From Desulfobacterales bacterium (lineage in GTDB: Bacteria > Desulfobacterota > Desulfobacteria > Desulfobacterales > G963662235), in NCBI GenBank assembly GCA_963662235.1, contig OY759308.1, positions 2,043,545 to 2,107,544 of the forward strand: a stretch of DNA of 64,000 nt, written 5' to 3'. A model generated the notes under the pieces. That model did no database searches. It was not told where the DNA came from and saw only the letters and a list, made by a program, of their open reading frames with translations. Of this stretch, positions 1 to 64,000 are shown piece by piece. A program made the translations under genes and the position numbers. Every line of letters starts with the position of its first letter. The stretch's first letter is position 1.

Positions 1-3000
1 AAGGAGGTTCTCCAAAAAATGCATTTATTGTACTATCACTATAAAATACTTCTTGTGTACCTGTGCTATCTGGCACACCTGTAATTTGAAGTTTTGGATA
101 AATTATAATTGTAAATGGAGTAGTAGTAGCAATCGCATTATTAACATCTTTTGCTTTTATTATAATATTAGTGATTGTGCTATCTTCTAAAGGTGTTCCT
201 GATATTACGCCTGTTTGAGTGTTTAAGGTAAGACCACTATTGAGTGCTACATTCCCTACAAAATAGGTATAAGGGGGCTCGCCAAAAAATGCACTTATTG
301 TAGTGTCACTATAAAAAGCTGATACTGTTCCGGTACTATCAACACTACCTGTAATCTGAAGCTTTGGATAAATTATAATTGTAAATGGAGTAGTGCCAGC
401 TACTGCATTATTAATATCTTTTGCTTTTATTACTATATTAGTTACCGTATCTGCTAAGAGAGGTGTTCCTGATATTAAGCCTGTTTGAGTGTTTAAGGTA
501 AGTCCGCTATTTAACGCTACCTCTCCTACAAAATATGTATAAGGAGGCTCACCAAAAAATGCATTTATTGTGTCGTCACTATAAAAAGCATCAACTGTTC
601 CTGTACTATCTACATTACCTGTAATCTGAATCTTAGGATATATAATAATTGTAAATGGAGTAGTGCCAGCTACCGCATTATTAACATCTTTTACTTTTAT
701 TATTATATTAGTGATTGTGCCATCTAATAAAGGCGTGCCTGATATTACACCTGTTTGAGTGTTTAATGTAAGACCACTATTTAGTGCAATCTCCCCTACA
801 AAATATGTATAAGGTCTTTCGCCAAAAAATGCATTTATTGTACTATCACTATAAAAAACTTCTTGTGTACCTGTGCTATCTACATTTCCTGTAATTTGAA
901 GCTTGGGATAAATTATAATAGTAAATGGAGTTGTACCATCTACCGCATTATTAACATCTTTTGCTTTTATTATGATATTAGTGACTGTACTGTTCTGTAA
1001 AGGTGTACCTGATATTACGCCTGTTTGAGTGTTTAAGGTAAGGCCACTATTTAAATCTACATCCCCTACAAAATAGGTATAAGGGGGCTCACCAAAAAAT
1101 GCATTTATTGTAGTGTCACTATAAAAAGCTGAAACTGTTCCTGTACTATCTACACTACCTGTAATTTTAAGCTTTGGATAAATTACAATTGTAAATGGAG
1201 TGGTGATAGCTTCCGCATTATTAACATCTTTTACTTTTATTATAATATTAGTGATTGTGCTATTCTTTAAAGGCGTACCTGATATTAAACCAGTTTGAGT
1301 ATTTAATGTAAGACCGCTATTTAACACTACCCCCCATACAAAATAGGTATAAGGGGGCTCTCCAAAAAATGCGTTTATTGTAGTGTCACTATAAAAAGCT
1401 GAAACTGTTCCTGTGCTGTCTACATTTCCTGTAATTTGAAGCTTTGGATAAATTATAATTGTAAATGGAGTAGTCTCAGCTACGCACCTATTAACATCTT
1501 TTGCTTTTATTGTTATATTAGTGATTGTTCCATCTGATAAAGGCGTTCCTGATATTACGCCTGTTTGAGTATTTAATGTAAGACCACTATTTAATGTAAC
1601 CTCCCCTACAAAATATGTATATGGAGACTCGCCAGAAAATGCACTTATTGTGCTATCACTATAAAAAGCCGAAACTGTTCCTGTGCTATCTACATTTCCT
1701 GTAATTTGAAGTTTTGGATAAATTACAATTGTAAATGGAGTGGTGATAGCTTCCGCATTATTAACATCTTTAGCCTTTATTATAATATTAGTGACTGTAC
1801 TATCCTTTAAAGGCGTACCTGATATTAAACCAGTTTGAGAGTTTAAGGTTAGTCCACTATTTAACGCTACTCCCCATACAAAATATGTATAAGGAGGCTC
1901 GCCAAAAAATGCATTTATTGTACTATCACTATAAAAACCATTAACTGTTCCTGTACTATCAGCATTTCCTGTAATTTGAAGCTTTGGATAAATTATAATT
2001 GTAAATGGAGTTGTTTTGGCTGTTGCTCTATTAACATCTTTTACTTTTATTATAATATTAGTGACTGTGCTATTTTTTAAAGGTGTACCTGATATTAAAC
2101 CAGTTTGAGTATTTAATGTAAGACCGCTGTTTAACGCCACTTCCCCTACAAAATATGTATAAGGAGGCTCACCAAAAAATGCGTTTATTGTAGTGTCACT
2201 ATAAAAAGCCGATACTGTTCCTGTGCTATCTACATTACCTGTGATTTCAAGCTTGGGATAAATTATAATTGTAAATGGAGTTGTGTCTGCTACCGCATTA
2301 TTAACATCTTTTGCCTTGATTACGATATTAGTGATTGTGCTATCTTCTAAAGGTGTTCCTGATATTTCACCTGTTTGAGTGTTTAATGTAAGGCCACTAT
2401 TTAAATCTACATCCCCTACAAAATAGGTATAAGGAGGCTCACCAAAAAATGCATTTATTGTAGTGTCACTATAAAAAGCACCAACTGTCCCTGTAGTGTC
2501 AGCATCTCCTGTTATTTCGAGTTTTGGGTAAATGATAATCGTAAATGGAGTTGTACCTACTATTGTATCATTAACATCTTTTGCCTTGATTACGATATTA
2601 GTGATTGTGCTATCTTTTAAAGGTGTTCCTGATATTTCACCTGTTTGAGTGTTTAAGGTTAGTCCACTGTTTAAAGCTATATCCCCTACAAAATATGTGT
2701 AAGGAGCTTCTCCAAAAAATGCTTTTATTGTAGTGTCACTATAAAAAGCTGAAACTGTCCCTGTACTGTCTGGCTGACCTGTAATTTGAAGTTTTGGGTA
2801 AATTATAATTGTAAATGGAGTTGTGCCTGCTGTCGCTCTATTAACATCTTTAACTTTTATTATAATATTAGTGACTGTACCCTCTAATAAAGGTGTACCT
2901 GATATTGCACCTGTTTGAGTGTTTAATGTAAGACCGCTGTTTAAAGCCACATCTCCTACAAAATATGTGTAAGGAGGCTCGCCAAAAAATGCATTTATTG

Positions 3001-6000
3001 TAGTGTCACTATAAAAAGCTTCAACTGTTCCTGTACTGTCTACATTACCTGTAATTTGAAGCTTTGGATAAATTACAATTGTAAATGAAGTAGTGCTAGC
3101 TTCTGCATTATTAACATCTTTTGCTTTTATTATTATATTAGTGACTGTGCTATTCGAGAGAGGCGTTCCTGATATTTCGCCTGTTTGAGTGTTTAATGTA
3201 AGACCGCTGTTTAACGCCACTTCCCCTACAAAATAGGTATAAGGAGGCTCACCAAAAAATGCATTTATTGTTGTGTCACTATAAAAAGCCGAAACTGTTC
3301 CTGTGCTATCAACACTGCCTGTAATCTGAAGTTTAGGATAAATTAGAATCGTAAACGGTATACTTTCTGCTATGGCATTATTGACGTCTATCGCCTTTAT
3401 TATTAGATTAGTTACTGTAGAATCTTTTAAAGGTGTGCCAGATATTGCCCCTGTTTGAGTGTTTAATGTTAGTCCGCTATTTAACGCCACATCCCCCATA
3501 GAATATGTGTAAGGAGGCTCGCCAAATAAAGCTTTAATGTTATTATCACTATAAAAAGCTGAAACTGTTCCTGTACTATCAATATTTCCTATGATTTGAA
3601 GCTTTGGATAAATTATAATCGTAAATGGCGTTGTACCCGCTACGCACCTATTAACATCTATAGCTTTTATCACTATATTAGTGATTGTCCCCTCTGATAA
3701 AGGCGTTCCTGATATTAAGCCTGTTTGAGTGTTTAAGGTTAGCCCGCTGTTTAACGCTACATCTCCTACAAAATAGGTGTAAGGTAATTCGCCAGAAAAT
3801 GCATTTATTGTACTATCACTATAAAAAGCCGAAACTGTTCCTGTGCTATCAACACTGCCTGTAATTTCAAGCTTGGGATAAATTATAATAGTAAATGGAG
3901 TGGTCTCTGCTTTTGCATTATTAACATCTTTTGCTTTTATTACGATATTAGTAATTGTTCCATCTAATAAAGGCGTACCTGATATTACGCCTGTTTGAGT
4001 GTTTAATGTAAGACCACTATTTAACGCTACATCCCCTACAAAATATGTATAAGGGGGCTCGCCAAAAAATGCATTTATCGTACTGTCACTATAAAAACCA
4101 TTAACTGTTCCTGTACTGTCAGCATTTCCTGTAATTTGAAGCTTTGGATAAATTATAATCGTAAATGGAGTTGTTTCTGCTGTCGCTCTATTAACATCTT
4201 TTACTTTTATTATAATATTAGTGACTGTGCTATTTTCTGAAGGCGTTCCTGATATTACACCTGTTTGAGTATTTAAGGTTAATCCACTGTTTAAGGCTAC
4301 ACCTTCAATAAAATATGTATAAGGTTTTTCCCCAAAAAATGCATTTATTGTAGTGTCACTATAAAAAGCATCAACTGTTCCTGTACTATCAACACTGCCT
4401 GTAATTTGAAGCTTTGGATAAATTATAATCGTAAATGGCGTTGTACCCGCTACGCACCTATTAACATCTATAGCTTTTATTATAATATTAGTGATTGTTC
4501 CATCTGATAAAGGCGTTCCTGATATTGAGCCTGTTTGAGTGTTTAAGGTTAGCCCGCTGTTTAAAGCTACATCTCCTACAAAATATCTATAAGGTGACTC
4601 GCCAGAAAATGCATTTATTGTACTATCACTATAAAAAGCACCAACTGTTCCTGTGCTATCAACACTGCCTGTAATTTCAAGCTTAGGATAAATTATAATT
4701 GTAAATGGTGTAGTTTCTGCTTTTGCATTATTAACATCTTTTACTTTTATTATAATATTAGTTACTGTGCCTGATAGAAGAGGTGTACCAAACACATCAC
4801 CTGTTTGAGTGTTTAATGTAAGACCGCTGTTTAACGCTACACCTTCAATAAAATATGTATAAGGTGCCTCGCCAAAAAATGCATTTATCGTACTATCACT
4901 ATAAAAACCATTAACTGTTCCTGTACTGTCAGCATTTCCTGTAATTTGAAGCTTTGGATAAATTATAATCGTAAATGGTATAGTCTCTGCTATAGCATTA
5001 TTAACATCTTTTGCTTTTATTATTATATTAGTGATTGTACCATTTGATAAAGGCGTGCCTGATATTTCGCCTGTTTGAGTGTTTAATGTTAGACCGCTAT
5101 TTAAGGCTATATCCCCCATAAAATATGTGTAAGGGGGTTCGCCAAAAAATGCATTTATTGTAGTGTCACTATAAAAAGCTGAAACTGTGCCTGTGCTATC
5201 AACACTTCCTGTAATTTGAAGCTTTGGATAAATTACAATTGTAAATGGAGTAGTCCCCTCTACGCACCTATTAATATCTATAGCTTTTATCACTATATTA
5301 GTGATTGTAGCAGCTGATAGAGGAGTACCTGATATTAAACCTGTTAAAGTGTTTAAGGTTAGCCCGCTGTTTAACGCCACTTCTCCTACAAAATATCTAT
5401 AAGGTGACTCGCCAGAAAATGCGTTTATTGTACTATCACTATAAAAAGCACCAACTGTTCCTGTGCTATCTACACTGCCTGTGATTTCAAGCTTAGGATA
5501 AATTATAATTGTAAATGGTGTAGTTTCTGCTTTTGCATTATTAACATCTTTTACCTTTATTACGATATTAGTGATTGTGCCATTCTTTAAAGGCGTACCT
5601 GATATTACGCCTGTTTGAGTGTTTAATGTTAGACCACTATTTAACGCTACCTCCCCTACAAAATAGGTATAAGGGGGCTCGCCAAAAAATGCATTTATCG
5701 TACTATCACTATAAAAGCCATTAACTGTTCCTGTACTGTCAGCATTTCCTGTAATTTGAAGCTTTGGATAAATTATAATTGTAAATGGGGTTGTTTCTGC
5801 TTTAGCATTATTAACATCTTTTGCTTTGATTATAATATTAGTTACCGTATCTGCTAAGAGAGGCGTGCCTGATATTACGCCTGTTTGAGTGTTTAATGTA
5901 AGTCCACTATTTAACGCCACATTCCCTACAAAATATGTGTAAGGAGGCTCTCCAAAAAATGCGCTTATTGTAGTGTCACTATAAAAAGCATCTTTTGTAC

Positions 6001-6870
6001 CTGTACTATCAACACTTCCTGTAATTTGAAGCTTGGGATAAATTACAATTGTAAATGGCGTTGTGCCCGCTACGCACCTATTAACGTCTATAGCTTTTAT
6101 TATAATATTAGTGATTGTACCGTCCTGTGAAGGCGTACCTGTAATATCACCTGTTTGAGTGTTTAAGGTTAGTCCACTATGTAATGAAACAACATCTCCT
6201 ACAAAATATCTATAAGGTAACTCACCAGAAAATGCTTTTATTGTAGTGTCACTATAAAAAGCACCCTCTGTCCCTGTGCTATCAACACTGCCTGTGATTT
6301 GAAGCTTTGGATAAATTATAATTGTAAACGGTATACTTTCTGCTGTAGCATTATTAACATCTTTTACTTTTATTACTATATCAGTTACTGTACCTGCTAA
6401 ACGAGGTGTGCCTGATATTTTTCCTGTTGAAGTGTTTAATGTAAGACCGCTATTTAAGGCTCCCCCTCCCATAGAATATGTATAGGGACCTTCCCCGCCA
6501 ATAGCTTGAAGATTGCCATCACTATCACTATAGAAACCGTCAACTGTTCCCGTGCTGTCAGCACTTCCTGTAATTTGAAGCTTTGGGAAAATAATAATTG
6601 TAAATGGATTAGTCTCAGCTATCGCACCATTAACATCTTTTGCTTTTATTTTGATATCAGTGAATGTACCATCCTGTGAAGGCGTACCTGTAATCTTGCC
6701 TGTTGCAGGGTCTAATTTTAACCCGATAGGCAGTGGCACATCCCCTACAAAATATGCATAAGGAGACTCACCATCAAAAGCTTGAATAGTGCTGTCACTA
6801 TAAAAACCGTAAACTGTACTTCTATTATATGGCGACCCTGTAATTTGAAGTTTTGGATAAATTATTAATG
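1..6870 (-). repeat. Tandem array of 270-bp (90-codon) coding repeats inside the giant CDS
   Basis: The marker gtaaa(t/c)gg recurs at 111, 381, 651 ... 6051 (23 anchors, exactly 270 bp apart), then at 6324 (+273), 6600 (+276) and 6870 (+270). All offsets are multiples of 3. Confidence 0.95.
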
Positions 6871-9800
6871 TAAAAGGAGCTGATGAGATTGTTCTGCCAT
6901 TTTGATCAGTAATAGAGATAACAATATTGCTCACTGTACCATAAGTTGTAGGCGTACCAAAAACAGAACCAGCACTTAATCCAGCAGGTAAATTTTTGTT
7001 ACTAAATACATATGGAGTCTTACCTCCTGAAAAATTAGGGGAACTATTACTATAATAAGCACCTTGTGTTAACGTATTATCAGAATCGGCAGGAACTCCA
7101 CTAACTTTAAGCTTGGCATATATCGTCATTTTATATGCTGGAAGTTCTGCACTCCTATTTGATTGGTCTGTAGCTTTTATAATAATATCATCTGATGTTC
7201 CAGCTATACCTTCTTTAATAGTGCCCGATATTATACCTGTAGTGCTATTAATAACTAAATTTTTTGGTAAAGTACTGTTCTTATCAGAGTATGTAAAACT
7301 ATTACTACTATCCTCTGTAGCAAAACCTGTAGCCTTAATACCACTATAACTAAGTGAATCGCCCTCATAAGCTTCAAGAGGCGGAGAACCTGTAATACTT
7401 AGTTGATACACCTTAATGCTAATCGCAGAAGTAAGCTTATAATTACCCGCACTATCTACCACTTTAAATATTATACTATTAAATTCACCTTGTTTTTTGA
7501 GAGTTCCAGCAACCTGACCATTTGAATCTAAAGATAAACCTGTAGGCAAAATACCACTATACAATGAAAAAGTGTATGGAGATGTTCCGCCAGTAGCTAT
7601 TATGTTAAAAGTAGAATAAGTATATCCTACATAACCATACGCAGTGGCAGAAGGATTAAAAGAAACAGACAGTGCTGTAGTAGTAGTAGTCGAAGTAGAA
7701 GAACTACCATTCCCACTACTGGTAGTAGTAGCAGTTGTATCGGTTGAAGTAATAGCATCATCTTGAGATGTGCCTCCTAACCCATCAACTACAACAACAT
7801 CGTCACTATAGACATTATCATCTGGTATGATTATATAATTATCTTCTGCCCCTCCCTTAGCACCAACTTCAGTCACTTGTGGTGCTGATGTCGGACTTGC
7901 AGAAGGGGTACTCTCTTTAGTTTCAGGTTTTTTAGTAACATCATAAAAAGAGGTAGAAACTAACTCTTTACCAACACTATTTTTGCCTTTTACAGCTTTA
8001 ATTCTGATTAAAACATTCCCTTCAAACTCATCGGGAACACTAATTTTAAAACTATTACATCTACTCCAGCTAACACCACCATCTAAACTTTTCTCATATA
8101 GAGTAATATTTTTAAAACCATCTACAGGAGCAAATCTTAAATATCTTCCAGCTTCATTATGCTCTATCTCAATTGGAGCCAAAATGGCTTTGGTAAAAGG
8201 GTTGCTTTCAGTAATAGTCCCTTCGCCATTTGTATTCCTTATTGCACGTTTAACTAAAAAAACAGTGCCATCAATATTGCCAGCATCTATCGTATAGTTA
8301 CCCGTATCTTTCCAACTATTACCTTTATCAAGACTATATTTATAAAAATAGGGAGAATCACTTTTTGAAAGCGGTGCAAAAACAAGAGTATTTGTTTCAT
8401 CATCGACACTAACTATCTCTGGTCCATCAGGTTTATTAAGAAAAAGAGAAGATTTTGAAATAAGACCGTTTGTGTTTTTATCTTTCTTTGCTTTAACACG
8501 AATCTCAACAAAACGCGTATAATTACCAACATTTATCTTGTTGCTGGTAGCATCTTGCCAAGTTTTGTCATTACTAAACCTATATTGATATGATGCAGCG
8601 TCAGGATAATTCTTTAAAAATTTAAACTCTAATATATCCTTTTCATCATCCTCTTTTAAAATTTCTACGGTTTCAGGACAATCAAGACTGCTTTTCCGTA
8701 CTTCTACAGAAACAATATCAAAACTGCTTCTCTTTAAATTATCTAAAGCACTAACTTTAAAAACTAAACGTTTACTACTATTAAATTTTGGGGCTATAAA
8801 TGAACAAGATAGATTATTGCTTTCTTCTGAATTTAGCTCTACCAAATCGTCAGGGTCATCAAAGACTTGACTCCATATTGTCTGCACACTCTCTCCAGAA
8901 TTTAATCCTTTTTTATGTACAGCTTTTAGAACGACTTTAACGTCACTCTCTATCCCTGTTAAATTCTCTCCTGCACTTATATAATTATAATTAGTTACAT
9001 TTTTTAAACTTATAGAAGAGGGGTCGTCCTTTTTACTTTTCTTCTTATCTTCTTTTTTGTTTTTTTTGTTCTTCTCTTCCTTTTTCTTAGCATTATCAGA
9101 TAGTAACGACACATTATTAACATTAAGACCGCTCTTATTCCTTTTGTCATTTAAAACTCTATAAATAGACCTTGCAAGTTCTTGCTTAAGAATAAAATCG
9201 GTAATAATGGCTTTTTTGCCATCACGTTCAATGGATTTCATCAAAGTGTTAAAAAAATCTATTATGCAACTGCTTAAACTCTGTTTACCGTCATTTTGAT
9301 TAAGTGCATAGTCAGAAAAAGCATAAAGTAATACTCCATACTCTTTATTGCTATTTTTTGTGCTTTTTAAAGAAGGACTAAAAGGGTCATAAGGAATAGC
9401 GCTTACAACATTAAAACTTTCATCACTTGAAAACGCACTGGAAAAAAGAGTTACAGTCTCTTCTATGTTTTTTTGTCTAAACCCTCTTTCCATTGCAATA
9501 AGCTTTTGCACCACCAATTCAGTTAATGGCGTAACAGCTACAGAATCACCAGAAACAATGTTTGAAACAACTGAACGCAAAGAAAAATCAGCAGGTAAAA
9601 AATACTTCACACCTGATACAGCATCTACAATTCCATCAGGAAAAGTCGCTTCAATTAAAAATGGCTTGTTTGCATATTCAGGCGGCAAAGAAAGGAAAAA
9701 ACCTCCTTTCTTGTCTGTCATGGTTGTGGCATCCTCTTTTGTATCATATAAGAGCTTACCATCTCTTATGCCACGTATAGTAATGTTGGCGAGGTTGCCT

Positions 9801-10081
9801 TTACCAAAAGAGACTACACCACTAAAAAACAGTCTTTGTGGTTTTTTCTTCTTTTTGAGCGTTTTTGAACTGTTTTTTTTACTCGTTTTGTTTTTTTTTA
9901 AAGATTTATCGGAAATGGTTTTATCGTTTTTGGTTACAGAAGAAGTATTAGCAGAAGAATCTGCAGGTAGGGCATCACTTAAACTGATAACTAAAACAAC
10001 AAAACTAAATAAAGTGGAAATAAAAAGTTTATTAAATAGTTGATTTAATTTTATAAAATTTTTTTTGAGGGCACTATGCAT
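1..10081 (-). CDS. Giant secreted repeat protein (adhesin-like); 5' end complete, 3' end runs off the left window edge. N-terminal signal/anchor, beta-sandwich modules, Ser/Thr linker, then >=29 He_PIG / dystroglycan-type cadherin-like Ig repeats
   Basis: Hand translation from ATG at 10081..10079 (MHSALKKNFIKLNQLFNKLFISTLFSFVVLVISLSDA...) stayed open down to ~4970. The same phase still reads ...GTQEVFYSDSTINAFFGEPP at 2..61. It is missing from the ORF track because no stop lies in the window. Unit consensus: PFTIIIYPKLQITGSxDSTGTxxAFYSDxTINAFxGExPYTYFVGxVALNSGLTLNTQTGxISGTPLxxGTITNIxIKAKDVNNAxAET. Confidence 0.85.
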   Translation of the reverse strand, partial: MHSALKKNFIKLNQLFNKLFISTLFSFVVLVISLSDALPADSSANTSSVTKNDKTISDKSLKKNKTSKKNSSKTLKKKKKPQRLFFSGVVSFGKGNLANITIRGIRDGKLLYDTKEDATTMTDKKGGFFLSLPPEYANKPFLIEATFPDGIVDAVSGVKYFLPADFSLRSVVSNIVSGDSVAVTPLTELVVQKLIAMERGFRQKNIEETVTLFSSAFSSDESFNVVSAIPYDPFSPSLKSTKNSNKEYGVLLYAFSDYALNQNDGKQSLSSCIIDFFNTLMKSIERDGKKAIITDFILKQELARSIYRVLNDKRNKSGLNVNNVSLLSDNAKKKEEKNKKNKKEDKKKSKKDDPSSISLKNVTNYNYISAGENLTGIESDVKVVLKAVHKKGLNSGESVQTIWSQVFDDPDDLVELNSEESNNLSCSFIAPKFNSSKRLVFKVSALDNLKRSSFDIVSVEVRKSSLDCPETVEILKEDDEKDILEFKFLKNYPDAASYQYRFSNDKTWQDATSNKINVGNYTRFVEIRVKAKKDKNTNGLISKSSLFLNKPDGPEIVSVDDETNTLVFAPLSKSDSPYFYKYSLDKGNSWKDTGNYTIDAGNIDGTVFLVKRAIRNTNGEGTITESNPFTKAILAPIEIEHNEAGRYLRFAPVDGFKNITLYEKSLDGGVSWSRCNSFKISVPDEFEGNVLIRIKAVKGKNSVGKELVSTSFYDVTKKPETKESTPSASPTSAPQVTEVGAKGGAEDNYIIIPDDNVYSDDVVVVDGLGGTSQDDAITSTDTTATTTSSGNGSSSTSTTTTTALSVSFNPSATAYGYVGYTYSTFNIIATGGTSPYTFSLYSGILPTGLSLDSNGQVAGTLKKQGEFNSIIFKVVDSAGNYKLTSAISIKVYQLSITGSPPLEAYEGDSLSYSGIKATGFATEDSSNSFTYSDKNSTLPKNLVINSTTGIISGTIKEGIAGTSDDIIIKATDQSNRSAELPAYKMTIYAKLKVSGVPADSDNTLTQGAYYSNSSPNFSGGKTPYVFSNKNLPAGLSAGSVFGTPTTYGTVSNIVISITDQNGRTISSAPFTLIIYPKLQITGSPYNRSTVYGFYSDSTIQAFDGESPYAYFVGDVPLPIGLKLDPATGKITGTPSQDGTFTDIKIKAKDVNGAIAETNPFTIIIFPKLQITGSADSTGTVDGFYSDSDGNLQAIGGEGPYTYSMGGGALNSGLTLNTSTGKISGTPRLAGTVTDIVIKVKDVNNATAESIPFTIIIYPKLQITGSVDSTGTEGAFYSDTTIKAFSGELPYRYFVGDVVSLHSGLTLNTQTGDITGTPSQDGTITNIIIKAIDVNRCVAGTTPFTIVIYPKLQITGSVDSTGTKDAFYSDTTISAFFGEPPYTYFVGNVALNSGLTLNTQTGVISGTPLLADTVTNIIIKAKDVNNAKAETTPFTIIIYPKLQITGNADSTGTVNGFYSDSTINAFFGEPPYTYFVGEVALNSGLTLNTQTGVISGTPLKNGTITNIVIKVKDVNNAKAETTPFTIIIYPKLEITGSVDSTGTVGAFYSDSTINAFSGESPYRYFVGEVALNSGLTLNTLTGLISGTPLSAATITNIVIKAIDINRCVEGTTPFTIVIYPKLQITGSVDSTGTVSAFYSDTTINAFFGEPPYTYFMGDIALNSGLTLNTQTGEISGTPLSNGTITNIIIKAKDVNNAIAETIPFTIIIYPKLQITGNADSTGTVNGFYSDSTINAFFGEAPYTYFIEGVALNSGLTLNTQTGDVFGTPLLSGTVTNIIIKVKDVNNAKAETTPFTIIIYPKLEITGSVDSTGTVGAFYSDSTINAFSGESPYRYFVGDVALNSGLTLNTQTGSISGTPLSDGTITNIIIKAIDVNRCVAGTTPFTIIIYPKLQITGSVDSTGTVDAFYSDTTINAFFGEKPYTYFIEGVALNSGLTLNTQTGVISGTPSENSTVTNIIIKVKDVNRATAETTPFTIIIYPKLQITGNADSTGTVNGFYSDSTINAFFGEPPYTYFVGDVALNSGLTLNTQTGVISGTPLLDGTITNIVIKAKDVNNAKAETTPFTIIIYPKLEITGSVDSTGTVSAFYSDSTINAFSGELPYTYFVGDVALNSGLTLNTQTGLISGTPLSEGTITNIVIKAIDVNRCVAGTTPFTIIIYPKLQIIGNIDSTGTVSAFYSDNNIKALFGEPPYTYSMGDVALNSGLTLNTQTGAISGTPLKDSTVTNLIIKAIDVNNAIAESIPFTILIYPKLQITGSVDSTGTVSAFYSDTTINAFFGEPPYTYFVGEVALNSGLTLNTQTGEISGTPLSNSTVTNIIIKAKDVNNAEASTTSFTIVIYPKLQITGNVDSTGTVEAFYSDTTINAFFGEPPYTYFVGDVALNSGLTLNTQTGAISGTPLLEGTVTNIIIKVKDVNRATAGTTPFTIIIYPKLQITGQPDSTGTVSAFYSDTTIKAFFGEAPYTYFVGDIALNSGLTLNTQTGEISGTPLKDSTITNIVIKAKDVNDTIVGTTPFTIIIYPKLEITGDADTTGTVGAFYSDTTINAFFGEPPYTYFVGDVDLNSGLTLNTQTGEISGTPLEDSTITNIVIKAKDVNNAVADTTPFTIIIYPKLEITGNVDSTGTVSAFYSDTTINAFFGEPPYTYFVGEVALNSGLTLNTQTGLISGTPLKNSTVTNIIIKVKDVNRATAKTTPFTIIIYPKLQITGNADSTGTVNGFYSDSTINAFFGEPPYTYFVWGVALNSGLTLNSQTGLISGTPLKDSTVTNIIIKAKDVNNAEAITTPFTIVIYPKLQITGNVDSTGTVSAFYSDSTISAFSGESPYTYFVGEVTLNSGLTLNTQTGVISGTPLSDGTITNITIKAKDVNRCVAETTPFTIIIYPKLQITGNVDSTGTVSAFYSDTTINAFFGEPPYTYFVWGVVLNSGLTLNTQTGLISGTPLKNSTITNIIIKVKDVNNAEAITTPFTIVIYPKLKITGSVDSTGTVSAFYSDTTINAFFGEPPYTYFVGDVDLNSGLTLNTQTGVISGTPLQNSTVTNIIIKAKDVNNAVDGTTPFTIIIYPKLQITGNVDSTGTQEVFYSDSTINAFFGERPYTYFVGEIALNSGLTLNTQTGVISGTPLLDGTITNIIIKVKDVNNAVAGTTPFTIIIYPKIQITGNVDSTGTVDAFYSDDTINAFFGEPPYTYFVGEVALNSGLTLNTQTGLISGTPLLADTVTNIVIKAKDINNAVAGTTPFTIIIYPKLQITGSVDSTGTVSAFYSDTTISAFFGEPPYTYFVGNVALNSGLTLNTQTGVISGTPLEDSTITNIIIKAKDVNNAIATTTPFTIIIYPKLQITGVPDSTGTQEVFYSDSTINAFFGEPP
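3541..6320 (-). repeat. Higher-order 810-bp (three-unit, A-B-C) repeat within the 270-bp array
   Basis: Sub-type markers recur every 810 bp. Type A (tacgcaccta tta) follows anchors 3621/4431/5241/6051. Type B (gtaatttcaagctt.gg...ctgcttttgcatta) is at 3891/4701/5511. Type C (ccattaactgttcctgtactgtcagcatttcct) precedes 4161/4971/5781. Confidence 0.85.
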
Positions 10082-10357
10082 ATTTTTTATACAAATATCT
10101 TTATATAAAATTTAAAAAACCATTCTATGATACAAGAATAGCCTTATTACTTCATTAATTGAAATATGGGATATAATCTAATCTGAAATTCTTTAAAAAA
10201 TCTTCAAAAAAAACGTTCAAAGCTTGATTTTTTACAAACATATATAAAAACAATCAAGTCTTTATATATGTTTTTTTGCGGTTTTTTTGCTTTTTTTTAT
10301 CCTCTTTTTCTTCAAGCTATAAATTATAAATATTTTATCTGCAAAAAAAGTTAACCG

Positions 10358-10374
10358 AGACCTTTGCACATAGC
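10358..10374 (+). mobile_element. Solo terminus of the AGACCTTTGCACATA repeat family (copy A)
   Basis: agacctttgcacatagc, 276 nt upstream of the giant CDS start; followed by a G-rich run at 10381-10400. Confidence 0.6.
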
Positions 10375-10439
10375 ATTAACGAGGTGGGGTGGGGGGGAAG
10401 AATAGTTAATTTAGATTAATTAAAAAAATATAAAAAATA

Positions 10440-32379: not shown

Positions 32380-34428
32380 ATGAAACAATTTTTACTTGAA
32401 ATAGGATGTGAAGAGATACCAGCAGGTTATATAGAAAATTCTTTAACAGCATTAAAAAACAATTTAATAGATGAACTGAACAAAAACAAAATTTCTTTTT
32501 CCTCTATTAATAGTTATGCCACTCCAAGAAGACTCGCTTTGATAGCTTACGAAATGGCAGAGAGCCAAGAAGCTATAGAAGAAGAGTTCTCAGGACCTCC
32601 TAAAAAAATTGCTTTTGATAAAGATGGCAACCCTACAATTGCTGCAAAAAAGTTTGCTGAAAAAATAGGACTTTCATTAAAAGAGATAAAAATTAAAAAA
32701 ACAGAAAAAGGCGACTATCTGTTTGCTTCAATTAAGAAAAAACCTTTAAAAACAGAGGCTATCTTAACCCAAATTTTACCTCAAATAATACTGAAAACAC
32801 CTTTTCCAAAATCTATGAGATGGGGGAAAGATACCATAAGTTTTGCAAGACCTATCCAAACTGTTACATCCCTTTTAGACAAAAAAGTGTTAAAATTTAA
32901 AGTGGGACTTTTAGAGAGCAGTAATTTTGTCTTAGGGCACAGATTTATGGCAAATAAAAAAATAGTTATAACCTCTCCTAAAGAGTATATAAGCAAATTA
33001 AAAAAAGCTTTTGTAATTGCAGATATTCAAGAGAGAAAAGCTTTGGTAAAAAAAGAAATTTTAAACTGCACAAAAAAAATAGATGGCAATCTCTTAGAAG
33101 ACGAAAGCCTTTTAGATATTGTAACAAATCTTGTAGAGTATCCTTTTGCAATACTTGGCAACTTTGAAAAAAAATTCTTAAGCGTTCCTTCCGAAATTCC
33201 TATAACTGCAATGAGAGAACATCAAAAATATTTCAGTATAGTAAACAAACAAAATAAGCTTATGCCATACTTTGTTGCGATAAATAATAGTAAGGCAAAA
33301 GATATGGATTTAGTCAAAAAAGGACACGAAAGAGTTTTAAGGGCAAGACTTTCTGACGTAAAATTCTTTTACGAAACAGATAAAAAAAGCTCTCTTAATA
33401 CATTTAGAAACAAACTAAAAAAAGTTTTGTTTCAAGCACAGCTTGGAACAGTATACGATAAATCTTTAAGAATTGAAAAGCTTGCAAGTTTTATTCTGCT
33501 CAAAAACAATTTAAAAAAATATGAAAAAGATATTCAAAGGGCTGCTAAATTTTGTAAATGCGACCTTGTAAGTCAGGTAGTGATTGAATTTCCTAAGTTG
33601 CAAGGAGTTATAGGCGGAGCTTATGCAAACCTCGCTAAAGAAAAAAGAAACGTTTATGAAGCAATAAAAGAGCACTACCTTCCTATACATTCAGGCGGAG
33701 CTTTACCAGAAACAAAACTTGGAGCAATTTTAAGTATTGCAGACAAGATTGACACAATATGTGGCTGTTTTTCAATAAACCTTATCCCTACAGGCAATGA
33801 AGACCCTTATGCATTAAGAAGAAATGGAATAGGCATAATTCAAATTATAGAAAAACATAAACTTAATTTTTCTATTCAAGATGCAATCAAAAAAAGCTTA
33901 TCTCTTTACAGTAAAAAAGATTTTAATGAAATTGCAGATAAAGTTTACGATTTTCTTAAAAAAAGAATGCTTAACCTATTTGTTGAAGCAGGTTTTGAAA
34001 AAGATATCGTATCTTCTGCAATCAAAACAAACGATGATAATATTTTATCTTTAAAAAGAAAGATAGAAGCCTTTACATCTTTAAAAAAATTAAAGGGATT
34101 TGATGAGCTTCTATCTACATTTAAAAGGGTTTCAAATGTAGTCAAAAATCAAAAAATTAAGGCTGGCAAGATAAATGAAAAACTTTTCAACCAAAACGAA
34201 GAGAAACAACTTTTCAAAGAGTTCAAAAAGATAGAGAAAGAGGCCTTAAAATATACAAAAAAACAAGATTACGAAAAAGCCCTACGCGAAATAGCAAAGC
34301 TTAAACCCTTTGTAGATATTTTTTTTGATAATGTAATGGTTATGGCAGAAGACGAAAAAATTAAAACAAACAGAATAACTCTTTTAAAAAATATTATTGA
34401 ACTGTTTGAAACATTTGCAAAGTGGTAA
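32380..34428 (+). CDS. glyS: Glycine--tRNA ligase beta subunit
   Basis: 682 aa; MKQFLLEIGCEEIPAGY..ATPRRLA..; starts 2 nt after the glyQ stop. Confidence 0.95.
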   Translation: MKQFLLEIGCEEIPAGYIENSLTALKNNLIDELNKNKISFSSINSYATPRRLALIAYEMAESQEAIEEEFSGPPKKIAFDKDGNPTIAAKKFAEKIGLSLKEIKIKKTEKGDYLFASIKKKPLKTEAILTQILPQIILKTPFPKSMRWGKDTISFARPIQTVTSLLDKKVLKFKVGLLESSNFVLGHRFMANKKIVITSPKEYISKLKKAFVIADIQERKALVKKEILNCTKKIDGNLLEDESLLDIVTNLVEYPFAILGNFEKKFLSVPSEIPITAMREHQKYFSIVNKQNKLMPYFVAINNSKAKDMDLVKKGHERVLRARLSDVKFFYETDKKSSLNTFRNKLKKVLFQAQLGTVYDKSLRIEKLASFILLKNNLKKYEKDIQRAAKFCKCDLVSQVVIEFPKLQGVIGGAYANLAKEKRNVYEAIKEHYLPIHSGGALPETKLGAILSIADKIDTICGCFSINLIPTGNEDPYALRRNGIGIIQIIEKHKLNFSIQDAIKKSLSLYSKKDFNEIADKVYDFLKKRMLNLFVEAGFEKDIVSSAIKTNDDNILSLKRKIEAFTSLKKLKGFDELLSTFKRVSNVVKNQKIKAGKINEKLFNQNEEKQLFKEFKKIEKEALKYTKKQDYEKALREIAKLKPFVDIFFDNVMVMAEDEKIKTNRITLLKNIIELFETFAKW

Positions 34429-58810: not shown

Positions 58811-60514
58811 CTAAAGATTTTTGGTTATATCTTTTGCTTCCTTAATTAAAGCTTTATAATTTTTTTCAAGGGATACTCCGCTATATTTTGCTTCATCTAT
58901 TCTTTTTAAAAAATCTATTACTTTTTTTACTACGTTTTCATCTTTTTTAGTTAACAATATCTTTGCTACTTCCTCATAACTTAAGTTCTCTCCTCTTTGA
59001 TTGCTGGTAGCAAGTATCGAATAGATAACGTAATTATATAAATTTGTTAAAAAAGCATCGTTAAACTTTTTAGCATCTTTAAGAGAAAGCAACGCTTTTT
59101 GTTGCATAAGTTGTTTGTCATTGAGCTTTCTTCTAAAAATCAAAAAATAAACTTTCAAGATAAGAAAAAGCATAATGGGGACAAGCAGGGCAAAAATAAA
59201 CTCTTTTAATAAAAGAGGAGATTCATTCTCTATGGCTAACTCTTTTTTTATAGGTAAAATATCTTTTTTAAGATACTTAACTTTTTTTTTAACTAATGGA
59301 GCACTAATAGTTGCACCATCATCGTTTCCTTTACTTAATGATTTTTCCCCCTTTTCTACAACAATCTTGATAGGTAAACTTTCAAGAAGTTTATACCTTT
59401 TTTCTACAATATCAAAAAAACTTAACTTTATAGGCTCTATTTCATAGCTTCCCTCTTTAAGAGGAACAATAGCAAAACGAAAAGTTTTTTTACCAGAAAA
59501 CCCTGCTTCAGTAAGATTTATCTCCTCTTCTGGTTTATCTTTATAAATTTTAAACGAATCGGACAGCTTAACATCTAAGCTATCACAATCCATTAAGTTA
59601 CCCACACCTTCAACTTCGACAGATAACGTTGCAGACTCCTCTTGTTTTATTCTCTTTTTGTCTATGGTAACATTAAGACCAATTCTTCCTACTATGTTCG
59701 AAAAATTTTCGTAATTAAGCTTAGGAAGCTCTTTGATATTAATATTTAAATCTTTAGCTTGAAGAACACGCTTTTTAAGCCTAACTCCACCAAAAAAAAA
59801 TGGGTCGTTAAAAAAAGAGTTTGTGTTATTCCCTTGCATAACTACGCCAAAAGATAAAACACCACCTTGAATATTCACCTTGCCAGACTTAATAGGTATT
59901 AAAACATATTTAAGCTCGGTAACATTAAAAAGCATACCTTCTATTTGGGTTCTATAAAACTTATCTGGTTTAATAGGTTTTGCGATAAAATTTTCAAAAT
60001 TTGGTGGCTGAAAATTCAAATCGCTAATTTCAACTCTATTATAAATTTTAAAACTATATACAATTTGCTCATTTAAAAAAGGGGAGTTATTTGATATTGA
60101 ACTATCTACAAAAACTTCATTGTTACCTGTGACTTTAGTTTTATTTTTTGTAACAACAATAGTGATTTTATTTGTAAACTTATCTTTTACTTTAATCGGC
60201 GGTATAGTAAATTTGCCTATCTGTTTCGGTATCAAGATATAACTAAAAAAAACTTCCTTAGAATATTTATTGTTTATTATTTTTACACTGGAAGTTCTTC
60301 CCTGCTCAATAACTTCAAAGTGGCTTTTAAGATTAGACATCTCAATTGATGAGTTTTCGTCCTCAAGCACAATAGTAAGATTTATAGATTCACCTATTGC
60401 CACCTGATTTCTATCTACAAAAGCTCTAACCTCAGCAAACAAGAGATTAAACGAACTAAGAAGAAAAAGTGATAAAAAAATCGATATAGTTATATATTTT
60501 CGTATATTTCTCAT
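58811..60514 (-). CDS. BatD-family (aerotolerance-operon type) membrane protein
   Basis: 567 aa; signal peptide, VDRNQVAIGESINLTIVLE-type beta-rich ectodomain repeats, one TM near residue 440, cytoplasmic helical tail. Confidence 0.5.
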   Translation of the reverse strand: MRNIRKYITISIFLSLFLLSSFNLLFAEVRAFVDRNQVAIGESINLTIVLEDENSSIEMSNLKSHFEVIEQGRTSSVKIINNKYSKEVFFSYILIPKQIGKFTIPPIKVKDKFTNKITIVVTKNKTKVTGNNEVFVDSSISNNSPFLNEQIVYSFKIYNRVEISDLNFQPPNFENFIAKPIKPDKFYRTQIEGMLFNVTELKYVLIPIKSGKVNIQGGVLSFGVVMQGNNTNSFFNDPFFFGGVRLKKRVLQAKDLNINIKELPKLNYENFSNIVGRIGLNVTIDKKRIKQEESATLSVEVEGVGNLMDCDSLDVKLSDSFKIYKDKPEEEINLTEAGFSGKKTFRFAIVPLKEGSYEIEPIKLSFFDIVEKRYKLLESLPIKIVVEKGEKSLSKGNDDGATISAPLVKKKVKYLKKDILPIKKELAIENESPLLLKEFIFALLVPIMLFLILKVYFLIFRRKLNDKQLMQQKALLSLKDAKKFNDAFLTNLYNYVIYSILATSNQRGENLSYEEVAKILLTKKDENVVKKVIDFLKRIDEAKYSGVSLEKNYKALIKEAKDITKNL

Positions 60515-61443: not shown

Positions 61444-64000
61444 TTATTCATAATCATAAGCATCTATAGATTGATTCTTAATTTCGTCTAGAATAGGATT
61501 AGGTATTTTTATAGAACTTTTTAAAACTTCTTTAGCAGCTTTTTCATAAAGTTTTTTGGGAGGTTCGTCATTGTAAAAAATCAATTCAATAGAATTAGAT
61601 GCTAAAAAAACACTTCCAGCAATTATTTTACCATTAAGAGTTGGTGCTACTTTAGTCGCCACTAATAAAGATGTAGTTGATATAGCTTTTAAATAATCTC
61701 TTTCTAAATTTGTATAATGTTCCTCTAACTGTTTCATAGTCTCGGTATCGTTCTGTTTTTTAGCTTTTAAATAATTTGTATCTAAATATTCTAAAACTTT
61801 TTGATCAACCTCATCATAACTATAACTCTCTGCTAATTTAGTATTAGTGTTCAAAAGTGTACTATTAAAATTATTTTCTCTCCATTCGTCTGTAGTTGTT
61901 GCCTCTGTGCCAAGCCCAGCATAAGAAAGCTCTTTAGATAGAGCATCATCTCCTTTTGATCCCATAAGATTTGCAAAATCTTCCCCACGGATTATTCCAT
62001 CGGCTTTGTCCTTTTCATGAGAAATTTCATGATTGAGAATATAAGAATCTGATTTATCATTAGAGTCCTCTGCTTTATTTAAAAATACATTATGGTCGTT
62101 TTTGTCTTTGGGATCCATCCCAGCAGAATTGCCAGCAACTTTATCTTTATTTTCTGAAAGGTATAATTTAACCTGAGCATAAGGAATGTTAAGCTCTTTA
62201 GCTATATATTGTGCTTGTAAATTCCTCGCTGCTTGCTGTTCTTCAGGACTTGCATTCGGATCAGTTAAAATCTTGGCGACATCAGGGTGCTTTTTTACAA
62301 AGTCTGTTGCTGCATTTTGTCTCGCAAAACTCTGACCAACATAATCCAATGCACTGTCATTATCGTTCTCATCCAAAGCTTTTTTAACTCCCTCTACTAC
62401 AGTCTCAACTCTGTCACCTATCCTTTGACCTTCATGCTTTATCTCTTTTGCAGTATCAATAGGATTAAGAAGTGCATTAACCGAAGCCTTATCTGCTTCA
62501 ATAGTTACATCTGTATCTTTTACTTTAATTTGAGCATTTGCCATATCTCTATTTAAGTCAGAAAGATCTTTATCAGAATCGTTTCTAACTGTAATCGTGC
62601 CCTGACCAATTGTACTTTTGTTGACTTGTGTTTTATTTTGTAAATCAGCTTTGACATTGTAGTTCGAACTTGATCCTGCATTTGCTCCTGTCGAAGAATG
62701 TGCACTTATACCTCCATTCAATCCTATCATCTTGTTCTTATCTCTAATATCAGAATATCCTAAATCGCCTGTATCTAAACTTAACTTATCTGTCTTTGAA
62801 TAAATATCTGCTCCTTTTAAGGTAGTTTTGTTTGCAACATAAATATTAACATTGCCACCTCCAGAAATGGAGCTTTTTTCATTTACCCACTTACTATCTC
62901 CTCTTGAAATACCTGCATTAATTCCACCAGAAATAGATTGGCTGCTAGAATCCTTCTCTTCAACTTTACTATAAGAAAAATTAACACCAAGACTCATACT
63001 TTTGCTTTTACTCGTATCTTGAAGAGAAACAACTTTTAAATCTCCGCCTACATCTAAATTTACATTTTCGGTGGCTTTTACAACTCCGCCCTCTATTGTA
63101 GTATCCTTTGTGCTTTTGATTGTTATGTTTTTACCGCCAATGTGAGAGTTGGCATAACTTGCATTTTTATTTTTGTTTTGAGACATATCAAAGCTAAAGT
63201 CTTGGGTTGCCTCAGATGCTGTAGAATACTTAAACTGATAATTTGCATACTGTGTTTCATTTGAAGAAGATGAGCTGTTTCTTGCGGCTGCAATAGCAAC
63301 ATCTTCTGCTTCAATTCCTATATCTTCAGAAGCATTTATATCACTGCCAGTTATAGATGCGGTTTTACCTGCTTTAATTGTAATATTTTTAGCACTAAGG
63401 TTAGAACCCTTTGCCTTAACAATTTCACTTTCAGTCTTTTGTATTAGTGCATCAACATCAAGAGTTACATCCCCTGTAAAACCTAATGTCCCATTTGTTT
63501 TGCTAAGCCCTACTACTTCTTGATTAAGTTTTAAAGTTTTTGCTTCAACTGAAGATGCAAGCATTCCTATACTTGCTATATAAAATGCCTCATCCTCTTT
63601 CATATCATCGTAATCTTCTTTAGAGATAAGACCTTTTTTATAATTAGATTTTGCTGTACTTAAATCATCTTTATATTTGCTGTAAGCTTCTTTAGTCTCT
63701 TTTAATTTCTTGGTCGTCTCTTTTAAAGACTTGGCTGCATTGTAAACATTAGATGCTTGATGACTTACTCCTACTGAAAGCTCTGCTTTGCCATGAATTT
63801 CTTCTTTTTGACTTTTAGTTTTTTCTTCAGCATACGTAATCTCTACATTCTCTTTGGCATCAAGAGTTATATCTCCTGTAGATGCAACATCAGAACCCTT
63901 AATTACTATATTCTTTTCACTTACTGCATCCCAACCCTCTTCACCTATTTTTAAATCACTACCTTTTTGAGTAGTTTGGCTGTTTTTCTCTTTTGTTTTA
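61444..64000 (-). CDS. Large TPS-type exoprotein (filamentous haemagglutinin / CdiA-like), 5' end beyond the right window edge; C-terminal region with an HExxH motif
   Basis: The reading frame is open from 63999 to the stop at 61444 (KTKEKNSQTTQKGSDLKIGEEGWDAVSEKNIVIKGSDVASTGDITLDAKENVEI...). The track Met at 63603 is internal. FHA-like beta-helix repeats (NITIKAGKTASITGSDI, GGKNITIKSTKDTTIEGG, GGNVNIYVANKTTLKGADI), ..DLNRDMANAQ.., then a non-repetitive C-terminus with LNHEISHEKD. Confidence 0.8.
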   Translation of the reverse strand, partial: KTKEKNSQTTQKGSDLKIGEEGWDAVSEKNIVIKGSDVASTGDITLDAKENVEITYAEEKTKSQKEEIHGKAELSVGVSHQASNVYNAAKSLKETTKKLKETKEAYSKYKDDLSTAKSNYKKGLISKEDYDDMKEDEAFYIASIGMLASSVEAKTLKLNQEVVGLSKTNGTLGFTGDVTLDVDALIQKTESEIVKAKGSNLSAKNITIKAGKTASITGSDINASEDIGIEAEDVAIAAARNSSSSSNETQYANYQFKYSTASEATQDFSFDMSQNKNKNASYANSHIGGKNITIKSTKDTTIEGGVVKATENVNLDVGGDLKVVSLQDTSKSKSMSLGVNFSYSKVEEKDSSSQSISGGINAGISRGDSKWVNEKSSISGGGNVNIYVANKTTLKGADIYSKTDKLSLDTGDLGYSDIRDKNKMIGLNGGISAHSSTGANAGSSSNYNVKADLQNKTQVNKSTIGQGTITVRNDSDKDLSDLNRDMANAQIKVKDTDVTIEADKASVNALLNPIDTAKEIKHEGQRIGDRVETVVEGVKKALDENDNDSALDYVGQSFARQNAATDFVKKHPDVAKILTDPNASPEEQQAARNLQAQYIAKELNIPYAQVKLYLSENKDKVAGNSAGMDPKDKNDHNVFLNKAEDSNDKSDSYILNHEISHEKDKADGIIRGEDFANLMGSKGDDALSKELSYAGLGTEATTTDEWRENNFNSTLLNTNTKLAESYSYDEVDQKVLEYLDTNYLKAKKQNDTETMKQLEEHYTNLERDYLKAISTTSLLVATKVAPTLNGKIIAGSVFLASNSIELIFYNDEPPKKLYEKAAKEVLKSSIKIPNPILDEIKNQSIDAYDYE

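Follow-up and report, generated by a model that had tools for sequence, protein, structure and literature searches.

An 810-bp higher-order repeat of probably old origin, apparently reshaped by exchange between its units, in a giant He_PIG-repeat gene of a Desulfobacterales bacterium

The window analyzed here is a 64,000-nucleotide (nt) stretch of the genome of a Desulfobacterales bacterium (GenBank assembly GCA_963662235.1, contig OY759308.1, positions 2,043,545 to 2,107,544 of the forward strand) that carries an array of 270-bp repeats at its left end. This array is coding and lies in a single minus-strand open frame that begins with an ATG at 10081 and runs to position 2, leaving the window's left end. 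The syntenic gene of a sister strain has the same ATG start and is called at 19,513 amino acids (aa; ~58.5 kb), and the array seen in the window is probably the beginning, roughly one eighth, of a far longer array. If the remainder of the sister-strain gene also consists of He_PIG repeats, the protein would have roughly 200 such domains. For annotation, this means that the "repeat array" is one gene continuing far beyond the window. The parts of this gene that matter most for what follows are:

2..10081, minus strand: 5' part of the giant gene, with 3,360 codons in the window, comprising a signal-peptide-like start, a non-repeat region of ~810 aa, and then the He_PIG domains
2..7120, minus strand: He_PIG array of 27 units of 90 aa (270 bp), from u1 (6860-7120) to u26 (101-370) and the partial u27 (2-100)
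3611..6313, minus strand: three-domain (810-bp) higher-order repeat formed by u4-u13, with the order A-X-B-A-X-B-A-X-B-A in the protein

Tandem Repeats Finder (TRF) places the 270-bp array at 1-6879 with 25.4 copies and 80% matches, and parsing the units in the domain register YPKLQITG yields exactly 90 codons each for u5-u26. The translation matches the Pfam family He_PIG of immunoglobulin (Ig) domains (PF05345, "putative Ig domain") with 458.7 bits against a cut-off of 24 (25 stretches, E-value 1.3e-140). Judging from the translation and the best Pfam stretch at aa 901-986, two more divergent He_PIG-like domains apparently lie just upstream of u1 at ~7121-7645. An AlphaFold2 (AF2) model of u10-u12 is all-beta and forms three beta-sandwiches (predicted local distance difference test score [pLDDT] 93.7, predicted TM-score [pTM] 0.80), and its top Foldseek matches are the EC arrays of CELSR1/protocadherin, the cadherin-like modules of SraP, and titin I67-I69 with E-values of 1e-13 to 1e-9. 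Adjacent units share 71-86% identity at the protein level (mean 80%), and the DNA identity between units is ~82%. The ratio of nonsynonymous to synonymous divergence (dN/dS) is ~0.21 both among units and between strains, which marks the open frame as a genuine gene kept by purifying selection.

The locus of the sister strain was reached through a cluster mate of the window's TPR protein on a 1.6-Mb contig of the European Nucleotide Archive (ENA) and then through an identical SPOR protein, leading to L083/L084 (ERZ21862600 contig_2). Its giant gene extends from L083:15896 and from L084:10962 onward and, by coordinate arithmetic, ends ~240 nt from the start of the 1.6-Mb contig. The sister protein was compared over its first 3,214 aa, which correspond to units r1-r25.

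A periodicity of 810 bp is superimposed on the 270-bp register of the array. This periodicity is real and resides at the level of multi-unit blocks, because units three positions apart are excessively similar and because exact runs at lags of 810 or 1620 bp cross the borders of units. Within u4-u13, mean DNA identity is 80.8% at a lag of one unit and 81.2% at a lag of two, but 87.5% at a lag of three and 87.8% at a lag of six, and an excess at lag 3 of this size is rarely reached when the order of the units is shuffled (p = 4e-4). A sequence-only reading of this stretch had described units 810 bp apart as visibly more alike than their neighbors and had pointed out marker strings at exact 810-bp spacing. 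Both observations hold, and every marker string was found where it had been placed: TACGCACCTATTA at 3641, 4451, 5261, and 6071 (plus 1481), CTGCTTTTGCATTA at 3907, 4717, and 5527, and a 33-mer at 4098, 4908, and 5718 (plus 1938 with one mismatch). Autocorrelation within 3541-6320 similarly peaks at a lag of 810 (0.835), ahead of 1620 (0.811), 540 (0.784), and 270 (0.78), while neither a period of three nor any other period was seen for u14-u26 in the unit-order test (p = 0.35). The five longest exact in-phase repeats of the array measure 83, 77, 71, 62, and 62 nt and all have lags of 810 or 1620, with the three longest spanning unit borders. Together with the same period in the second genome described below, these exact runs bear out the proposal that what was amplified was a multi-domain block of 810 bp and not single domains.

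The positions of this block, and similar units elsewhere in the array, are the following:

6041-6313 (u4), 5231-5500 (u7), 4421-4690 (u10), and 3611-3880 (u13), minus strand: type A units (NRCV), a clade in the unit tree
5771-6040 (u5), 4961-5230 (u8), and 4151-4420 (u11), minus strand: third-position (X) units, generic, consensus-like, and marker-free
5501-5770 (u6), 4691-4960 (u9), and 3881-4150 (u12), minus strand: type B units with NADSTGTVNG at the start and NNAKAE near the end
1721-1990, minus strand: B-like unit u20, assigned by marker and tree
1451-1720, minus strand: isolated A-like unit u21, assigned by marker and tree

Three strictly alternating subtypes had been proposed, and a neighbor-joining tree of the units supports this fully for type A, partly for type B, and not for the third position. 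The four type A units are monophyletic with 90% bootstrap support, and in a joint tree of the two strains their clade also takes in r4, r7, and r10 of the relative (81%). Type A carries the signature residues S29, I74, R78, and C79 and is the sole Cys-bearing domain in the window's array, with Cys at aa 1336, 1606, 1876, 2146, and 2866, of which the first four are exactly 270 aa apart; dN/dS of the A units is 0.16-0.32. Among the type B units, u6 and u12 group together with 94% bootstrap support and 93.7% identity, and u9 is 87% identical to both yet joins u3. The X units u5, u8, and u11 form no class in this genome, as they scatter in the tree and their within-class identity of 81.5-84.8% equals the background, while the matching units r5, r8, r19, and r22 of the relative are more coherent (87-91.5%). 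The "B" and "C" classes that had been kept separate collapse into one, since their markers share the same domain units (u12, u9, and u6) and merely sit at the C- and N-terminal ends of these, respectively. KLEITG, which had been taken for a type B feature, is part of the A unit and turns up in u18 and u19 as well. The A-like and B-like units that had been noticed in the distal part of the array were recovered as u21 and u20, and so was the pair of units 540 bp apart (u20/u22, 90% identical).

The flanking genes of the two strains are 98.1-99.6% identical with a synonymous divergence (dS) of 0.02-0.08. Through unit 25, the relative has the same unit count and register, and when units are typed by the signature residues of A and B, both strains yield one identical string, A.BA.BA.BA......BA. 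The excess similarity at lag 3 also recurs in r4-r13 of the relative (0.877 vs 0.821, p = 0.001). It follows from the identical layout that the blocks and the isolated B-A pair (units 20-21) predate the split of the strains. As far as two sequences can tell, the block duplication thus appears to be old and to have occurred before the divergence of the two known strains.

The nucleotide identity between these strains varies strongly along the array, with two divergent segments:

4421..6313, minus strand: first divergent segment, units 4-10, 85-94% identical to the relative
641..2530, minus strand: second divergent segment, units 18-24, 82.6-93% identical to the relative, holding the isolated B-A pair

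Identity is 98-99.6% in the N-terminal region and u1-u3, drops to 85-92% in u4-u9, and returns via u10 (94%) to 96.7-99.3% in u11-u17; it then falls again through u18 (91.5%) to 82.6-87.8% in u19-u23 and recovers via u24 (93%) to 99% in u25. Units 4-10 differ between the strains with a dS of 0.29 and a dN of 0.061, which is roughly six and at least ten times the values of the flanking genes, respectively. Accumulated point mutation does not account for this excess, because degenerate third positions of the divergent units that are invariant among paralogs differ between the strains in only 4 of 252 cases (1.6%) compared to 266 of 1007 (26%) for those that vary among paralogs, and because 399 of 422 differences (~95%) are a base that some other unit of the window carries in that alignment column.

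The differences between the strains cluster in patches. As examples, u9 has the IEG patch of u11 at a place where r9, u6, and u12 agree among themselves, and r10 has a GVPD patch that is found in u27. Several units of the relative are also nearer to a same-type unit elsewhere in the window's array than to the unit at their own position, namely r9 (94% to u6 vs 88%), r21 (97.8% to u13 vs 84.8%), and r20 (91.9% to u9 vs 82.6%), and r19 is 92.2% identical to u8. Taken at the level of sequence, these patterns indicate gene conversion between units that changes their content but not their number, and we infer that it would mostly occur between units of the same type. The loss of class identity among the X units in this genome would fit such a process, because a consensus-like unit has many potential conversion donors. 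Unit r18 of the relative (L084:18507-18776) reads NNCVAG and thus has a Cys in a non-A unit, where u18 of the window (2261-2530) reads NNAVAD, and r7 is without most of the type A signature and retains R78 and the Cys. Given this gain and this loss, the Cys-bearing loop appears to move between units by patch exchange.

The reading that we favor, with a probability of roughly 70%, is an old duplication of the A-X-B block by unequal recombination that was then both eroded and maintained by gene conversion. The three-domain block of 810 bp would have been duplicated in tandem before the strains split, via a putative unequal crossover. Short-patch conversion between units, dependent on homology and with a preference for the same type, would then have had three effects: it would keep the A units, and likewise the B units, more similar to one another than neighbors are; it would have made the consensus-like third unit indistinct from the generic units of the array; and it would let units 4-10 and 18-24 diverge several times faster than their flanks at unchanged unit number and type order. 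The giant protein itself may be exported by the Sec pathway and displayed as a surface fiber, with the He_PIG array as its stalk.

Several points weigh against this reading. The comparison covers two genomes and no outgroup, and the direction of conversion and its bias to the same type rest on a handful of cases. Both divergent segments of ~1.9 kb could be allelic imports from a third lineage. The window holds 27 of perhaps ~200 units, and donors as well as more periodic blocks may lie outside it. The X units do not rise above background in this genome, and we putatively place them in the original block because they are contiguous with it, because exact runs reach 18 nt into X, and because the relative's X units are more coherent. 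Surface location and adhesion are to be seen as candidate roles, since the C-terminal end of the protein and any anchor fall beyond the window and its head matched no Pfam family. A further-reaching idea that we regard as doubtful is that the ~200 He_PIG paralogs of this 58-kb gene constitute a built-in cassette library from which conversion re-assorts loop variants in units 4-10 and 18-24. If this were true, antigenic or ligand-specificity variation could be drawn from donors within the same gene at fixed domain number and order, and this in a deep-branching lineage known from two genomes.

Fully compatible with this history, though in our view unlikely, is a functional super-repeat in which selection keeps the period-3 order and the Cys-bearing type A does something specific; by analogy, periodic disulfide cross-linking or ligand contacts like those of the titin A-band super-repeats would be possible roles. 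Such selection could account for the retention of S29, I74, R78, and C79 in the A units of the two strains even though patches have been heavily converted, for the exact 270-aa spacing of the Cys residues, for a type order that is unchanged between the strains despite 6-15% sequence turnover, and for the low dN/dS of the A units. However, the period covers just 10 of the 27 units in the window, with neither A nor B types among units 14-19 and 22-26, and r7 and r18 show that most of the signature can be lost from an A unit and a Cys gained by a non-A unit.

It is similarly improbable that the divergence of units 4-10 and 18-24 reflects ordinary homologous recombination between strains, by which allelic segments of ~2 kb would have come in from a more distant third lineage. 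Such an origin would match the confinement of the divergence to two contiguous and fairly sharp-edged segments with units 11-17 at background, and long recombination tracts have been described for other giant surface-protein genes (PMC12863079). Yet divergence is not raised at paralog-invariant synonymous sites, nearly all differences have a template within the window's array, donors within one genome match specific patches exactly, and r21 is 97.8% identical to u13 of the other strain. Even under import, the variation itself would stem from inter-unit exchange in the donor.

A recent amplification of the three-domain block, with the 810-bp copies as young duplicates, had been the conclusion of the sequence-only reading, and the exact spacing of the markers, the higher identity at a lag of 810 than at 270 and 540, and the long exact runs at a lag of 810 across unit borders are what it would predict. 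We nevertheless consider it very improbable and already largely refuted. Units of the same type have a dS of 0.13-0.49 (A) or 0.21-0.39 (B) and the third position is at background (0.45-0.62 compared to a mean of 0.57 for all pairs), the longest exact repeat of the array has just 83 nt, and the same layout and unit count are found in a strain whose flanking genes differ by a dS of no more than 0.02-0.08. Similarity between the repeats is no clock for the date of their duplication, because their sequence turns over by exchange among the array's own units. A better explanation of the excess similarity at lag 3 is ongoing conversion, mostly within a type, among blocks that were duplicated long ago. 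Chance resemblance or an assembly artifact can be dismissed, because, even though repeat arrays are easily misassembled and two short-read contigs from Logan break off inside the gene, the permutation tests (p = 4e-4 and 0.001) and bootstrap support (90%) are clear, two independent megabase-scale assemblies agree on unit count and type order, units differ by ~18% with no exact repeat above 83 nt, and the open reading frame (ORF) is intact over 10 kb in the window and called at 58.5 kb in the relative.

Outside its repeat array, the gene and its surroundings include the following features:

9032..9835, minus strand: head domain (aa 83-350), modeled by AF2 as a beta-sandwich with a helical bundle after it
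10082..10439, minus strand: intergenic stretch upstream of the giant gene, separating it from the SPOR-domain gene

From its N-terminus, the giant protein consists of a signal-peptide-like start, a Lys/Ser-rich stretch, a head of ~270 aa, further non-repeat modules, a Ser/Thr-rich linker, and the He_PIG repeats. As read from the translation, the N-terminus MHSALKKNF...LFISTLFSFVVLVISLSDA (MHSALKKNF...VISLSDA) resembles a Sec signal peptide. The head domain matched no family in a Pfam search and is modeled with a pLDDT of 92.7 and a pTM of 0.88. It has 23 weak relatives, and the consensus of their alignment opens with a lipoprotein-like LxACGGGG motif. The best match of the head model in the PDB is weak, namely the non-heme domain of PgcA (9i0d, E-value 2.7e-5, target-normalized TM-score 0.42), and the only other match at E-values of up to 0.001 is the still weaker Lig v 1 (6yoa, 8.6e-4); PgcA is an extracellular cytochrome of Geobacter. 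Between head and stalk, at ~7787-8647 on the minus strand, lie three modules of ~95 aa with the pattern Y-x-Y-(R/K/S)...W...(I/V)R(V/I)KA, whose sole family match is a weak one to CHB_HEX_C (E-value 0.005). The same modules are found, apparently in more copies, in P0001, a homolog from a metagenome-assembled genome (MAG). Judging from these sequence features, the giant protein is probably Sec-exported, surface-exposed, and fibrillar-adhesin-like. Two ORFs opposite the giant gene (7983-8297, plus strand, 104 aa; 9465-10043, plus strand, 192 aa) are most likely spurious, because they lie inside a gene under purifying selection.

The 358-nt upstream region is 100% identical in four independent sequences (one each from the window and the sister strain and two from Logan contigs) while the neighboring genes differ by 0.4-1.9%, which suggests that it may be a constrained regulatory region or 5' leader. 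A consensus scan of 10082-10439 found neither a sigma-70 promoter nor a terminator upstream of the giant gene. A poly-C tract in this region (C7-A-C4) was considered as a phase-variation switch and rejected, given that its length is constant in all four sequences. The two Logan contigs (L001 and L085, from SRR34447573 and SRR34447553) are of the same organism and both stop in the Lys-rich (poly-A) part of the giant gene, exactly 192 nt from its start, so that short-read data evidently fail to assemble this gene.

No relative with an orthologous array was found among GTDB species representatives with the N-terminal 900 aa as query, or in JGI metagenomes with either a repeat-unit profile or the exact DNA string of u3. 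In protein searches, the best match to the three-unit block outside the two strains is 41% identical, and the N-terminal part has a single partial homolog outside them, which is 35% identical and encoded on a MAG contig that breaks off before reaching the array; this MAG is labeled Alphaproteobacteria. GlyS of the window (glyS, 32380-34428) shares 96% identity with its sister-strain counterpart and no more than 50% with any other match, these others coming from MAGs of Desulfobacterales and Pseudomonadota. The lineage hence seems to be without close sequenced relatives beyond the one sister strain. The G+C content is ~30%, and scans of the window with Rfam and for tRNAs gave no match.

The rest of the window is ordinary chromosome. 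It encodes a SPOR-domain protein, argS, a peptidyl-prolyl isomerase (PPIase), a TPR protein, fliJ-I-H-G-F-E, and rod genes as well as a sigma-54 regulator, subunits of pyruvate:ferredoxin oxidoreductase (PFOR), glyS, thiC, ABC transporters, PBP2, EF-G, hemB, ispD, and batD. Two of its genes deserve separate mention:

61444-63603, minus strand: second adhesin-like gene of 719 aa with filamentous haemagglutinin repeats (Fil_haemagg_2, E-value 2.4e-25)
58811-60514: BatD-family gene near the haemagglutinin-repeat gene

Compared to what has been described elsewhere, the feature studied here belongs to known kinds and is not a new kind. Super-repeats in which units n positions apart are more alike than neighbors, arising from the duplication of multi-unit blocks, are well known from titin and nebulin and as the higher-order repeats of satellite DNA. 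The array resembles these with n = 3, ~3.3 copies, and a lag-3 excess beyond chance in both strains. It differs from a full super-repeat in that not every position forms a class, although two of the three are still distinct, and it is a short and partly eroded bacterial case that, unlike titin and nebulin, is without a known periodic partner structure. Furthermore, its similarity seems to be shaped by gene conversion and is not a simple record of duplication age. The giant RTX adhesins of type I secretion systems (T1SS) like LapA, SiiE, and MpIBP lack a Sec signal and have a retention module at the N-terminus, an RTX/T1SS signal at the C-terminus, and a T1SS operon next to their gene. Our giant protein has a Sec-like signal by sequence, and none of the 33 ORFs scanned in the 54-kb upstream flank of its gene matched a T1SS family.

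The units belong to He_PIG (PF05345) both by a hidden Markov model score above the gathering threshold and by the Ig/cadherin-like beta-sandwich seen in the model of u10-u12. With its signal-peptide-like start, a distinct N-terminal head, and a stalk of at least 27 tandem Ig-like He_PIG units, the protein resembles fibrillar adhesin-like proteins (Monzon et al. 2021, PMC8286594), but its head has no Pfam match and resembles the PgcA non-heme domain only weakly in fold, and its size as called in the sister strain is extreme. This size is still well below the more than 30,000 aa of the giant proteins predicted by West-Roberts et al. 2023 (bioRxiv 10.1101/2023.11.21.568195).

Periscope Proteins such as SasG, Rib, and Sgo_0707 have stalks of variable length made of high-identity repeats and were found by screening for tandem repeats of more than 50 aa with at least 80% identity, whereas adjacent domains of multidomain proteins are usually less than 50% identical (Whelan et al. 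2021, PMC8201768). The structured 90-aa units of our array, with their mean adjacent identity of 80%, pass this screen at its border only. Unlike in Periscope Proteins, the repeat number does not differ between the two strains through unit 25, and the units are just ~82% identical at the DNA level with exact repeats of no more than 83 nt. At least in the visible part, it is thus the content of units that varies, seemingly by gene conversion, and not the length of the stalk.

A close parallel to this behavior may be the giant surface-protein genes of Apilactobacillus kunkeei, whose dS is 4-8 times that of flanking genes, which has been attributed to short intragenic recombination (PMC12863079). 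Like these, the gene described here is very large, encodes a predicted extracellular protein, and has a between-strain dS several times that of its flanks, but it belongs to a different domain family and lineage, and the source of the exchange could be identified among the paralogous units of its own array. The locus thereby flags a very large and almost homolog-free candidate surface-protein gene in a lineage with one sister strain as close relative. It also illustrates how a very long Ig-like stalk may evolve, with its layout frozen and its sequence turned over by exchange between the units.

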